A stretch of 64,000 bases of DNA. Source: an uncultured Planctomycetales bacterium. GTDB taxonomy: Bacteria > Omnitrophota > Gorgyraeia > Zapsychrales > JANLHA01. Both the position numbers and the translations under genes were made by a program. The notes beneath the pieces are model-generated. The model was not told where the DNA came from. It did not search any database and saw only the letters and a program-made list of their open reading frames with translations. The stretch covers positions 8,745 through 72,744 of the forward strand of contig CAYVEC010000006.1 of assembly GCA_964450385.1 (NCBI GenBank). Direction: 5' to 3'. Shown in pieces: positions 62,404 through 62,850 of this stretch (its first letter is position 1; each line of letters begins with the position of its first letter).

Positions 62404-62485
62404 GCGCGGGTGGCGGAATTGGTAGACGCGCACGTTTGAGGGGCGTGTGGAGCAATCCATGAGGGTTCGATTCCCTCCTCGCGCA
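62404..62485 (+). tRNA. tRNA-Leu(GAG), long variable arm
   Basis: Acceptor GCGCGGG/CTCGCGC (one G.T), D-arm GCG-GAATTGGTAGA-CGC, anticodon stem CACGT/GCGTG loop TTGAGGG, variable stem-loop tGGAgcaaTCCat, T-arm GAGGG-TTCGATT-CCCTC; no encoded CCA. Confidence 0.85.
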
Positions 62486-62632
62486 TAAATTTTTCATATG
62501 TATTTTGTGTACGTATTAAAAAGTCGGATCCGGAAATATTCGTATGTAGGGTGAACGAATAATATTGATCGGCGGGTTCGCGAGCATCAGGAGGGGCGAA
62601 GCCGGAGCACTCGGGCGTATCGGCCTTTTGAT

Positions 62633-62815
62633 GTGGTTTCTGTGGAAGAGTTTGAGACTCGGGGAGAGGCTCGGCTCCGTGAGAAGTGGCTGAAGAGCGG
62701 CTGTGGACGGGAGATGAGGAAGAAGGAGGGTTCTCAAGCGCGTCGATGCCTCCTAATGGCAGACAGACAGGAGGGGCGTGTGGAGCAATCCCTGCCCGCC
62801 GGCAGGCGGGCATGA
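62633..62815 (+). pseudogene. remnant of GIY-YIG (YhbQ/UPF0213-type) endonuclease gene, C-terminal third only
   Basis: Translation VSVEEFETRGEARLREKWLKSG matches the conserved C-terminal block of YhbQ-like GIY-YIG proteins; an EHSG-like piece of the middle motif appears in another frame upstream; no intact GIY-YIG N-terminus. Confidence 0.45.
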
Positions 62816-62838
62816 GGGTTCGATTCCCTCCTCGCGCA
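62738..62838 (+). repeat. degenerate second copy of tRNA-Leu(GAG): 3' half identical, 5' half decayed, 20-nt palindromic insertion in variable arm
   Basis: 62771-62791 and 62812-62849 are identical to the anticodon-loop-to-3'-flank part of the upstream tRNA, including 9 nt past the acceptor end (TAAATTTTT); inserted CTGCCCGCCGGCAGGCGGGC forms a 7-bp hairpin; acceptor 5' strand and anticodon stem no longer pair. Confidence 0.5.
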
Positions 62839-62850
62839 TAAATTTTTTCG

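Follow-up and report, generated by a model that had tools for sequence, protein, structure and literature searches.

Why does a second, damaged copy of tRNA-Leu(GAG) stand a short distance behind the intact gene, with a GIY-YIG endonuclease gene between the two copies and a 20-nt palindrome inside the second? The question is raised by one locus in a 64,000-nt stretch of an Omnitrophota genome (hereafter the window). A preliminary description had read this locus as a relic integration site at a tRNA gene, with tRNA duplication followed by pseudogenisation as the fallback. The analysis presented here indicates that it is probably a decayed copy of a free-standing GIY-YIG mobile cassette that is nested in tRNA genes and coupled to a mobile mini-hairpin, and that is dead in the window.

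The tRNA-Leu locus and its nuclease gene

The intact tRNA-Leu(GAG) of the preliminary description was recovered by ARAGORN and by Rfam, in which it scored 49.9 bits against an RF00005 gathering score of 29. The features of the locus are collected in Table 1. Two exact blocks of the intact gene recur in the second copy, one of 21 nt from the anticodon (62771-62791 = 62438-62458; blastn E 6e-6) and one of 37 nt (62811-62847 = 62458-62494; blastn E 1.8e-15). They make up a 57-nt duplicate of the tRNA 3' part and 9 nt of flank, the flank recurring behind copy 2 at 62839-62847. The identity from the anticodon to 9 nt past the acceptor end had thus been described correctly, as had the degenerate state of the 5' half, which aligns with the intact tRNA at the syntenic locus L008 and retains GCGCG and AATGGCAGAC. 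When tRNA finders were applied to copy 2, as had been proposed, it was not recognised as a tRNA: ARAGORN reported none, and Rfam returned no tRNA match at E <= 10, the sole hit being tRNA-Sec at 19.9 bits, where the gathering score is 47. The sharp contrast between a 3' part that is 100% identical to copy 1 and a decayed 5' half is not what uniform neutral decay would give. No sigma-70-like promoter or terminator was detected around the locus. A supposed older pseudo-copy with a decayed palindrome 5' of copy 1 (62338-62373) scored at chance level and was rejected.

Table 1. Features of the tRNA-Leu locus, numbered from the first nucleotide of the window
Feature	Position	Strand	Basis or remark
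pyrG (CTP synthase), upstream syntenic anchor	60650..62257	+	ORF list; also neighbour in L008, L206
tRNA-Leu(GAG) copy 1, intact, functional gene	62404..62485	+	ARAGORN; Rfam RF00005
9-nt 3' flank TAAATTTTT of copy 1	62486..62494	+	within 37-nt exact repeat
Small GIY-YIG (UPF0213/YhbQ/Slx1-like) nuclease gene, pseudogene	62498..62737	+	translation; Pfam; homologs
In-frame TGA, codon 19 of GIY-YIG gene	62552..62554	+	relatives: Leu, Ile, Met or Ser
Copy 2, degenerate 5' half	62738..62770	+	aligns with intact tRNA 5' half, syntenic L008
Copy 2, anticodon GAG to variable arm	62771..62790	+	= 62438-62457; repeat search, blastn
20-nt hairpin mini-element CCTGCCCGCCGGCAGGCGGG	62791..62810		clean insertion between tRNA positions 54 and 55
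Copy 2, T arm, acceptor 3' strand and 9-nt flank	62811..62847	+	= 62458-62494; repeat search, blastn
rpe (ribulose-phosphate 3-epimerase), downstream syntenic anchor	62866..63591	+	ORF list; homologs named Omnitrophota

The gene between the two copies had been taken for a C-terminal GIY-YIG fragment with pieces of the middle motif in other frames. It is full-length and in one frame: from ATG 62498, without a frameshift and with a sole in-frame TGA, the translation yields the whole domain, MYFVYVLKSRIRKYSYVG*TNNIDRRVREH...KSGCGRE. Residues 1-67 match Pfam PF01541 (E 2.8e-14, 53.6 bits, cut-off 22.6). The natural stop codon has been lost, and the frame therefore continues through copy 2 up to TGA 62813-62815. 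Recoding of the TGA at codon 19 was considered and rejected; TGA closes 14 of the 34 long ORFs in the window, pyrG among them, and this codon is therefore a genuine stop. No Shine-Dalgarno sequence was found for the gene. With the TGA at codon 19, the lost stop and the absent Shine-Dalgarno sequence, the nuclease gene of the window is, to judge from its sequence, dead. It is not an intact ORF despite keeping all the conserved residues of the family (Y5, S9, Y16, G18, R26, H30, E62 and K66), and it is 59-63% identical to homologs of 79-80 amino acids.

The assignment to the YhbQ/UPF0213 type was supported. The nearest solved structures in a PDB search were 1zg2 (E 1.3e-5), 1ywl (5.6e-4) and the structure-specific endonuclease Slx1, 6seh (4e-3), and the NCBIfam intron-endonuclease and UvrC models scored far under their cut-offs; the protein belongs to the UPF0213/YhbQ/Slx1-like branch, not to that of I-TevI and UvrC. 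The family, which comprises 5,244 clusters at 50% identity, shares the GIY-YIG catalytic core with UPF0213/YhbQ (1zg2, 1ywl) and with Slx1 (6seh). Its members of about 80 amino acids consist of the catalytic domain only and have no DNA-binding domain, unlike Slx1, which has an added RING domain and a partner, Slx4. Intact genes of this kind are carried by L008 and by the cultured Niabella insulamsoli N803 (NZ_CP190246, near 2.52 Mb). For bacterial UPF0213/YhbQ proteins, no function or genomic behaviour was described in the open-access literature searched.

The ORFs within 60500-64000 are purF, pyrG, the GIY-YIG gene, rpe and a small ORF. In the relatives L169, L167, L205 and L008, tRNA-Leu(GAG) stands immediately 5' of rpe. 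This ancestral tRNA position is occupied in the window by copy 2, 28 nt 5' of rpe. The cassette is found at the same pyrG/tRNA-Leu/rpe locus elsewhere in Omnitrophota, intact in L008 and L205, where the ORF lies upstream of the tRNA (filled sites), and decayed in L206. On comparison of these sequences, the order in the window (tRNA, ORF, pseudo-tRNA) appears to be derived from the ancestral order pseudo-tRNA, ORF, tRNA of the relatives, and the cassette looks long-resident at this locus. In L169 and L167 there is no ORF between tRNA and rpe, and the contigs end at the tRNA. No conspecific pair of filled and empty sites was found, the nearest rpe being 65% identical; a metagenome scan with rpe gave relatives of at most 57% identity and no empty site, and two metagenome relatives retain pyrG and rpe without a tRNA in between. 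Two bona fide tRNA-Leu genes with no GIY-YIG gene were not found at this place in relatives.

Recurrence of the arrangement across phyla

Homologous loci were surveyed in 600 candidate stretches from GTDB genomes, of which 528 encode relatives of the nuclease, and 80 loci were kept. At 61 of the 80, from many phyla, a tRNA gene lies on the same strand within 150 bp of the nuclease ORF: downstream in 48, upstream in 12 and overlapping in one, the nuclease gene being strictly co-oriented with the tRNA. A partial copy of the adjoining tRNA is present on the far side of the ORF in 53 of these 61 loci. An endonuclease ORF accompanied by an intact and a displaced partial copy of its host gene, the arrangement by which mobile ORFs are recognised, is thus found in these 53 loci and in the window. 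The duplicated part is the tRNA 5' part in 48 of the 61 relatives. At most loci its left edge falls within 2 nt of tRNA position +1, and in about 10 loci the stop codon of the ORF is formed by nt 8-10 of the tRNA. These results demonstrate a cassette in which a GIY-YIG gene of about 80 residues lies between an intact tRNA and a partial, hairpin-interrupted duplicate of that tRNA. The whole unit of about 330 bp, made up of nuclease gene, tRNA fragment and 20-nt hairpin, is a complete recurrent architecture in dozens of genomes, and nothing need be missing from the element that had been described as largely deleted. The cassette is very small, widespread and apparently undescribed: the open-access literature yielded no account of the 20-mer or of an association of GIY-YIG/UPF0213/COG2827/YhbQ genes with a tRNA duplicate and a palindrome.

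Tyrosine-integrase islands and prophages carry attL and attR in tRNA 3' ends. The integration-relic reading takes the two tRNA 3' ends of the window for such sites, the island or prophage between them having been deleted and the GIY-YIG gene left over as cargo. Part of this reading stands: as in tRNA-targeting integrative elements, foreign DNA is bracketed by direct repeats of part of a tRNA that stays functional, here the tRNA 3' part with 9 nt of flank, and the GC content dips a little, to about 0.50-0.52, from one copy to the other. What does not stand is the integrase, which was absent from 60500-64000 and from the related cassette loci inspected, and the supposed deletion, since a complete GIY-YIG gene exactly fills the 285 bp that separate the repeats, and 53 of the 61 homologous loci next to a tRNA show this minimal layout as well. 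Unlike integrase att sites, the repeat of the cassette is usually the 5' part of the tRNA, varies in length and is interrupted by a hairpin; copy 2 itself includes a 5' half at the ancestral tRNA position, the supposed cargo amounts to one gene of 240 bp, the 20-mer is conserved and is no debris, and a unit of only about 330 bp is unlike these elements. An integrase-mediated relic is extremely improbable and largely refuted.

The fallback supposes an ordinary tandem duplication of tRNA-Leu in which one copy has decayed, the GIY-YIG gene and the palindrome being functionally unrelated bystanders. This would account for copy 2 as a full-length yet decayed tRNA, and tandem tRNA arrays do exist at loci L013 and L017. 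It misses the link to the nuclease gene, for which 61 of 80 loci are tRNA-linked against an expectation of well under 1%, always in the same orientation. The palindrome lies beside the ORF in about 27 loci, with no copy in 80 rpe loci that served as control (about 300 kb in all), and the uneven decay of copy 2 also speaks against plain duplication, which is very improbable.

The duplicated segments are of local origin or have been homogenised: a pseudo-copy shares 98% identity with its own tRNA and 61% with same-isotype tRNAs at other cassette loci. This argues against the import of tRNA arms between distant species, and "portable" arms carried in from distant donors are disfavoured. No pairs indicative of recent horizontal transfer were found among the 80 loci.

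The 20-nt hairpin beside the nuclease gene and in phages

The palindromic 20-mer that the preliminary description saw in copy 2 is indeed a clean insertion between the two exact blocks, with a boundary that is ambiguous by 1 nt (62791-62810 or 62792-62811). It occurs once in the 64 kb, differs from the consensus CCTGCCTGCCGGCAGGCAGG at 2 positions, and folds with an 8-bp stem and a GGCA loop (-18.2 kcal/mol). Variants of the hairpin are compensatory in the register of a 6-bp stem and 4-nt loop. At pair 5/12, 39 C-G, 26 T-A and 4 A-T pairs stand against 5 non-Watson-Crick combinations, which corresponds to 30 compensatory variants versus 5; the control pair 5/16, expected of a full palindrome, gave 0. 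Both substitutions in the window are compensatory in the 4-nt-loop register, the one backed by these counts. The full 10-bp perfect palindrome, that is, a dyad site in double-stranded DNA, was rejected as the selected structure by control covariation scans.

About 20 loci, belonging to Saccharibacteria, Omnitrophota, Bacteroidota, Gracilibacteria, Chlorobiota and other groups, carry the exact 20-mer. Judged against the intact tRNA of each locus, this one sequence is cleanly inserted into the pseudo-copy at many different tRNA positions (8/9, 14/15, 21/22, 23/24, 31/32, 39/40 or the anticodon loop). Nucleotide identity among the ORFs of these loci is only 65-75%, and the 20-mer is invariant even beside ORFs whose amino-acid identity has dropped to 50-60%. 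It lies 12-70 nt 5' of the start codon in most loci, and no more than about 70 nt from the ORF in essentially all cassettes of the Leu/Arg/Lys clade. The hairpin family, moreover, co-varies with the clade of the nuclease ORF. From this linkage and co-variation, its sole basis, we infer that hairpin and nuclease may be coupled.

The hairpin is also dispersed independently in phage genomes. On phage contigs, 42 exact and 32 variant 20-mer sites were found in distinct contexts, with up to 6 copies per 29.5-kb contig and some hairpins inside the loops of other hairpins and in a phage tRNA-Met. A GIY-YIG gene is near only 2 of these sites; 73 of about 75 have none nearby in the sequence fetched. 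Among 57 ORFs sampled from seven hairpin-rich phage contigs, no GIY-YIG and no transposase family was encountered, and the L008 homolog gave nothing at E <= 1e-6 in tblastn against 50,697 isolate phage genomes. Clean insertion at many tRNA positions and spread in phages are signatures of DNA-level mobility, and the 20-mer is a conserved element of several phyla and of phages, not an incidental palindrome or debris.

These phage sites bear on the proposal that the hairpin is moved by other, unlinked machinery and collects in the dispensable, structured pseudo-tRNA, the GIY-YIG gene being a plain free-standing homing endonuclease. The scarcity of GIY-YIG genes near phage hairpins, their absence from the sampled ORFs, and the nesting of hairpins in other hairpins and in tRNA-Met all fit such a proposal. 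REP elements, however, likewise lie mostly far from a RAYT gene, so that remote hairpins are no argument against an enzyme acting in trans. Against unlinked machinery stand the hairpin family that follows the nuclease clade, the constancy of the 20-mer beside diverged ORFs and its closeness to the ORF in essentially every Leu/Arg/Lys-clade cassette. We regard it as rather improbable.

A host-retained, domesticated gene of the tRNA operon is a more serious rival, if still an unlikely one. An Slx1-like nuclease co-transcribed with the tRNA would here serve the cell, for instance by repairing tRNA loci that are structured or highly transcribed, or by acting in defence; the hairpin would be an mRNA stabiliser or processing signal, and the tRNA fragments by-products of nuclease-induced local rearrangement. 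Of the family ORFs, 80 of 83 (96%) are intact with their catalytic residues, and this, like the apparently long stay of the cassette at one and the same locus in several Omnitrophota, would be expected of a gene useful to the host no less than of a selfish gene. ORF and tRNA 5' end are tightly fused, the stop codon of the ORF falling within the tRNA, which implies co-transcription, and the usual place of the hairpin 5' of the start codon would suit a role in the mRNA. Phage SegB amplifies tRNA regions to the benefit of the phage (PMC13096335). On the other side, the hairpin is cleanly inserted at many tRNA-derived positions and spreads in phages far from such a gene. More than one paralogous cassette, beside different tRNAs within 3 kb, was seen in 13 of 80 loci, and decayed cassettes occur in the window, L018, L077 and L206 and, in L013, as a second copy; the two observations are suggestive of proliferation and loss. 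As to defence, the PADLOC models gave no significant match, the best being UzuA (E 0.0088 over 22 residues).

Comparison with known elements and a possible mechanism

The closest parallels to the preferred reading, a tRNA-nested GIY-YIG mobile cassette, are the fungal mitochondrial mobile ORFs (mORFs), in which endonuclease ORFs accompany duplicated gene termini, as in Allomyces macrogynus atp6 and in Glomus atp6, atp9, cox2 and nad3; the Glomus atp9 element encodes a GIY-YIG enzyme (PMC3630166). In both cases a free-standing endonuclease ORF is inserted at a conserved host gene, with a complete copy of that gene and a displaced partial copy beyond the ORF, and the ORF may be in phase with host-gene sequence. 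The cassette differs in that its host gene is a bacterial tRNA in which the duplication more often involves the 5' than the 3' terminus; its ORF has only about 80 amino acids, the catalytic domain alone, and a conserved hairpin mini-element belongs to it. Its duplicated segments are local and about 100% identical, whereas those of mORFs are foreign and diverged.

A GIY-YIG gene among tRNA genes is also known from phages T4 and T6, in which SegB is a free-standing GIY-YIG homing endonuclease in a tRNA gene cluster. Unlike the cassette nuclease, SegB is larger, has a DNA-binding part and is phage-borne, and it lacks both a partial tRNA duplicate and a conserved hairpin. Its nuclease activity is tied to the preferential inheritance of the tRNA region or to segmental amplification of that region (PMC13096335).

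The hairpin has counterparts of its own. Elhai et al. in 2008 reportedly described small dispersed repeats (SDR) of 21-27 nt in Nostoc, work that is cited in PMC3116915 and PMC5861425; we know of no enzyme for these repeats. REP/REPIN elements are short dispersed hairpins with a cognate enzyme gene, the RAYT transposase (PMC3116915). Like REP and SDR, the 20-mer is a very short hairpin, dispersed in many copies; changes in its stem are compensatory, its copies are cleanly present or absent, and some are nested in other hairpins and in genes for structured RNA. As with REP/RAYT, one cognate enzyme gene is flanked by the hairpin, most copies are remote and the hairpin type co-varies with the enzyme clade. 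The enzyme linked to the cassette, by contrast, is a GIY-YIG hydrolytic nuclease and not an HUH/Y1 transposase of the RAYT kind, its gene is nested in a tRNA duplicate, and the identical 20-mer is common to several phyla.

In the mechanism that we propose, the nuclease gene would be a free-standing mobile ORF, similar to a homing-endonuclease gene, for which tRNA genes serve as landing sites. Its insertion, or the repair that follows, may leave one complete tRNA and one displaced fragment, as in mitochondrial mobile ORFs. The tRNA-derived repeats could then supply homology for recombination, in which case a nuclease clade would stay on one isotype; the Leu clade occurs at all five Leu isoacceptors. 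Double-strand-break repair between both tRNA copies may keep them identical, and a structure-specific nuclease acting on its cognate single-stranded hairpin could mobilise the latter.

A broader version, in which UPF0213-type GIY-YIG genes and cognate hairpins of 15-20 nt form a two-component mobile system comparable to REP/RAYT, is put forward tentatively, as a possibility that we hold to be on the doubtful side. Its driver would be the GIY-YIG nuclease, acting as a hydrolytic and structure-specific enzyme. Nuclease gene and hairpin, in a unit of about 330 bp, would be autonomous and would nest in tRNA genes by way of the tRNA-derived repeats, and the 20-nt hairpin would be a non-autonomous passenger that spreads in trans, across phyla, in the genomes of bacteria and phages. 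In that case no smaller mobile elements, whether autonomous or non-autonomous, would be known in bacteria, and many orphan tRNA gene fragments would be explained.

For the UPF0213/YhbQ-type GIY-YIG family, which has solved structures and no known biology, this locus provides a link with tRNA genes as well as with a specific hairpin, and thereby a testable function. A 20-nt sequence that is invariant from Saccharibacteria to Bacteroidota and Omnitrophota, and is present in phages as well, implies a conserved recognition event. The cassette would account for partial tRNA genes that mislead annotation, for contig breaks at tRNA loci and for N-terminally over-extended calls of these small genes. 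Should the nuclease act on its hairpin, the pair would be a minimal, programmable-looking insertion system and a new route of tRNA-locus rearrangement.

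The tRNA-Leu locus in the window

The intact tRNA-Leu(GAG) (copy 1) was recognised by both ARAGORN and Rfam, and the preliminary description of a second copy repeating its 3' part was borne out by two exact repeat blocks. Exactly 20 nt lie between these blocks, CCTGCCCGCCGGCAGGCGGG, and correspond to the palindromic insert reported there; the boundary is uncertain by 1 nt, so that the earlier placement at 62792-62811 is equivalent. The insert folds into an 8-bp stem with a GGCA loop and occurs once in the 64-kb window. Neither program recognised a tRNA in copy 2. The other four tRNA genes of the window have neither a GIY-YIG gene nor the 20-mer nearby. 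A candidate for an older pseudo-copy upstream of copy 1 was rejected, as it scored at chance level compared with the rest of the window.

The GIY-YIG gene between the copies had been taken for a C-terminal fragment with pieces in other frames. Instead, the entire domain (Pfam PF01541, E 2.8e-14, residues 1-67) lies in one frame from the ATG, with zero frameshifts and one in-frame TGA, and reads MYFVYVLKSRIRKYSYVG-stop-TNNIDRRVREHQEG...EFETRGEARLREKWLKSGCGRE. In this genome TGA acts as an ordinary stop, terminating 14 of 34 long ORFs, pyrG included. Homologs are 79-80 aa long, which places the end of the gene proper near the last position before copy 2; it has no natural stop, and the frame continues to a TGA beyond. 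Since every family-conserved residue is kept, the gene is, on sequence grounds, recently killed and not scrap. The system is dead in this window.

Coordinates of features in the window and in loci (L) fetched from other genomes and phages
Sequence	Feature	Position	Remarks
Window	copy 1	62404-62485	intact tRNA-Leu(GAG)
Window	GIY-YIG gene	62498-62737	ATG at 62498
Window	in-frame TGA	62552-62554	
Window	TGA ending the frame	62813	
Window	copy 2	62738-62847	
Window	repeat block 1	62771-62791	= 62438-62458; 21 nt, anticodon onward
Window	insert	62791-62810	
Window	repeat block 2	62811-62847	= 62458-62494; 37 nt: T arm, acceptor strand, 9 nt of 3' flank
Window	rejected candidate	62338-62373	13-nt match to tRNA start (TTTCGCGGCGGTG), then vaguely palindrome-like stretch
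Window	tRNA-Cys, -Leu(TAA), -Val, -Gln	1770-2070, 18751-18824	
L013	tandem array	1337-2230	Niabella insulamsoli, complete genome
L017	tandem array	1425-2260	
L018	tandem array	1440-2134	
L016, L022	displaced tRNA-Leu 3' copy	~1800-1945	Algoriphagus isolates
L205	ORF ending within tRNA	136-451	
L205	contig start	1-135	
L167	contig start	1-65	
L169	contig start	1-100	
L194	phage tRNA-Met with 20-mer	2239-2330	exact, cleanly inserted
L171	phage tRNA-Met with 20-mer	~8570-8660	exact, cleanly inserted
L170	20-mer in or between repeats	10560-11330	
L193	20-mer in or between repeats	850-960	
L172	20-mer in or between repeats	1630-1700	
L178	20-mer in or between repeats	8370-8440	
L201	cassette	440-1420	IMGVR_UViG_3300035537_000177
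L201	group I intron	1182-1416	Rfam RF00028, 86 bits

A recurrent unit of nuclease gene, tRNA duplicate and hairpin

The same tripartite unit, in strict orientation, recurs in other genomes. The closest homolog (P0001, 62% identity) is encoded at the same kind of locus (L001/L002), in the order 5' part of tRNA-Leu(TAG), 20-nt hairpin, ORF and intact tRNA-Leu(TAG), followed by more tRNA-like copies with a GC hairpin in place of the anticodon arm. The gene for P0002 (59%) is flanked by a degenerate tRNA-Arg 5' half and an intact tRNA-Arg. When each GTDB species was scanned through a single genome, 528 of 600 candidates were confirmed as relatives and 80 loci were kept. A tRNA lay within 150 bp of the ORF in 61 of these, on the same strand every time: directly downstream in 48, directly upstream, as in the window, in 12, and overlapping in 1. 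Across the ORF, 53 of the 61 carried a partial copy of the same tRNA, comprising its 5' part where the tRNA is downstream and its 3' part plus flank where it is upstream. In most loci the duplication starts, on its left side, within 2 nt of tRNA position +1, and in about 10 loci tRNA nucleotides 8-10 form the ORF's TAG stop. It is very improbable that the tRNA duplication is coincidental, as these statistics would be left unexplained.

The pseudo-copies are 98% identical to their own genome's tRNA, compared with 61% to same-isotype tRNAs at other cassette loci. The repeats are thus local in origin, either derived from the resident tRNA gene or kept uniform with it by homogenisation. The preliminary description had read the tRNA repeat as an att-site relic of integration at tRNA-Leu. 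This reading does not stand and retains the barest probability: no integrase is present, a single gene exactly fills the space between the repeats, most duplications in relatives are of the 5' part, and the hairpin is a conserved element.

Clustered at 50% identity (E <= 1e-3), the family falls into 5,244 groups, with intact ORFs in 80 of 83 aligned members, and hosts include Patescibacteria, Bacteroidota, Omnitrophota, Ignavibacteriota, Chlorobiota and Elusimicrobia. The unit proliferates within genomes, a second family member lying within 3 kb in 13 of the 80 loci, and it occasionally decays.

Several loci have features of their own. In the arrays of L013, L017 and L018, GIY-YIG ORFs alternate with tandem tRNA units, some bearing the hairpin and some not. 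Among the members of these arrays are tRNA-Leu copies of full length that have the hairpin in their D loop and end in terminators of their own, and also a second copy of the ORF, apparently with an in-frame stop. In L016 and L022 the displaced copy bears small hairpin insertions of several kinds, of which one (CGTGCC-GAA-GGCACG) resembles an inverted duplication of neighbouring tRNA sequence. ORFs end within the tRNA in L205, where the stop is a TGA overlapping the anticodon, and in L020, L021, L004, L033, L041, L051, L058, L072, L073 and L077; RNase P processing of such a co-transcript would leave the mRNA without its stop codon. Lengths of 95-135 aa, with homology from residue 20-50, are common among called family proteins (P0127-P0275), and gene callers appear to extend these ORFs upstream across the hairpin and the pseudo-tRNA, a region free of stops.

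The rpe homologs place the organism in Candidatus Omnitrophota (nearest relative 65% identical), and Omnitrophota relatives share the pyrG/tRNA-Leu(GAG)/rpe neighbourhood with the window. In L008 the order is pyrG, pseudo 5' copy (1-31, hairpin, 32-46), ORF (63% identity), intact tRNA and rpe. In L205 the ORF extends into the intact tRNA, with rpe next in line, and L206 retains decayed but recognisable ORF remnants 5' of the tRNA. The presence of the cassette at this locus in all three indicates that it is old at the site and that the ancestral order was ORF, then tRNA. In L169 and L167, whose contigs start at the tRNA, the 40-90 nt between tRNA and rpe are empty. The closest relatives' contigs (L167, L169, L205) start at or inside the tRNA, or just 5' of the GIY-YIG gene, which suggests that short-read assemblies regularly break at this locus with its many repeats.

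The arrangement in the window is derived: the site beside rpe, where the tRNA was ancestrally, is taken up by the pseudo-copy, and the working tRNA is found upstream of the ORF. Copy 2 is a mosaic of an old decayed 5' half and a 3' part identical to copy 1, which indicates that a duplication or gene conversion took place recently, its tract starting on the left at 34/35, 3 nt from the L008 hairpin site (31/32). Two routes would fit: tandem duplication of an ORF-tRNA unit and subsequent deletion through the repeats, or conversion between a pair of full copies.

Conservation and spread of the 20-nt hairpin

The 20-mer (consensus CCTGCCTGCCGGCAGGCAGG) was found with zero mismatches at about 20 cassette loci across phyla, beside ORFs of merely 65-75% nucleotide identity, and was absent from all 80 control loci (~300 kb around rpe genes). 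Compared with the intact tRNA, it is a clean 20-nt insertion every time, with no target duplication and no deletion, at points that vary by locus: 8/9, 14/15 (commonest), 21/22, 23/24, 31/32, 39/40, the anticodon loop and, in the window, 54/55. This geometry, the same sequence cleanly inserted at many sites, is characteristic of a mobile mini-element. In more distant ORF clades, the same place is occupied by other GC hairpins (for example TCCGCCnnnGGCGGA; TGCGCCnnnGGCGCA with CTCGCCtntGGCGAG; TGTCCCGAAGGGACA; GTCGCCTwAGGCGAC), and hairpin family tracks ORF clade; hairpin and nuclease thus co-vary.

The mobility signature is accompanied by structural constraint. In degenerate scans, pair 5/12 of the register with a 6-bp stem and 4-nt loop was C-G in 39 cases, T-A in 26 and A-T in 4, against 5 non-Watson-Crick; 32 T-A and A-T variants came from distinct contexts. 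Control pairs of the full 10-bp palindrome were essentially uncompensated (0 at 5/16, one at 3/18). The window substitutions T7>C and A18>G are compensatory in the 4-nt-loop register on the opposite strand. Judging from this compensation, the selected form is a single-stranded hairpin with a 4-nt tail.

A search of IMG/VR for the exact 20-mer by itself gave 42 sites in 35 stretches, in contigs that are genuinely phage (portal and terminase genes). A family ORF adjoins 1 of the 42. Two sites fall within a phage tRNA-Met, in its variable loop; the remainder are intergenic, often inside another hairpin's loop or heptamer-repeat tracts. The L194 tRNA-Met is still called by ARAGORN (92 nt) and may still be a working tRNA whose variable arm is long; that of L171 has lost the T arm. 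In L170, L193, L172 and L178 the 20-mer lies in heptamer or short tandem repeats or between 7-14-nt direct repeats, which may be target duplications or pre-existing. The L201 cassette is of the typical kind and consists of a tRNA 5' part, the exact 20-mer and a GIY-YIG ORF, with a downstream tRNA copy interrupted in its anticodon loop by a group I intron.

That most phage copies lack the nuclease gene agrees with movement of the hairpin by other machinery and its mere accumulation in dispensable tRNA-like DNA, which we consider improbable. Somewhat less so, but still unlikely, is a host-retained gene with a hairpin acting at the RNA level, a view supported by the age of the cassette at its site, by the intactness of the ORFs and by their close fusion to the tRNA transcript. 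Both fit less well with clean DNA-level insertions combined with an invariant hairpin beside diverged ORFs and with hairpin-nuclease clade co-variation.

Proposed mechanism and significance

The locus is probably a decayed copy of a tRNA-nested, free-standing GIY-YIG mobile cassette coupled to a mobile mini-hairpin, by a mechanism that we infer as follows. The ORF would behave as a free-standing homing-endonuclease gene or mobile ORF, landing in tRNA genes such that one tRNA stays complete, and the tRNA-derived repeats would be the homology source for recombination. Homology supplied in this way would explain how one ORF clade occupies all five Leu isoacceptors although the protein lacks a DNA-binding domain. 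Of its characterised relatives the structure-specific Slx1 is the nearest, and the nuclease may recognise its cognate hairpin, cleave it and so mobilise it in trans, by analogy with RAYTs and REPs. Such breaks would trigger repair that keeps the tRNA copies identical.

Mitochondrial endonuclease mORFs duplicate the terminus of atp6, atp9, cox2 or nad3 (PMC3630166), and here too an endonuclease ORF enters a gene of which one complete copy remains. The cassette differs in residing in bacterial tRNA genes, in being miniaturised and in its coupling to a hairpin that resembles REP or SDR elements. Searches of the open-access literature found the association of the 20-mer, UPF0213/COG2827/YhbQ GIY-YIG and tRNA duplication nowhere described. 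The stronger reading, a hairpin mobile system driven by the GIY-YIG nuclease, is offered tentatively, as a doubtful possibility; if true, it would be categorically new. The window instance is a decaying member, and its worth lies in being an entry point to the family.
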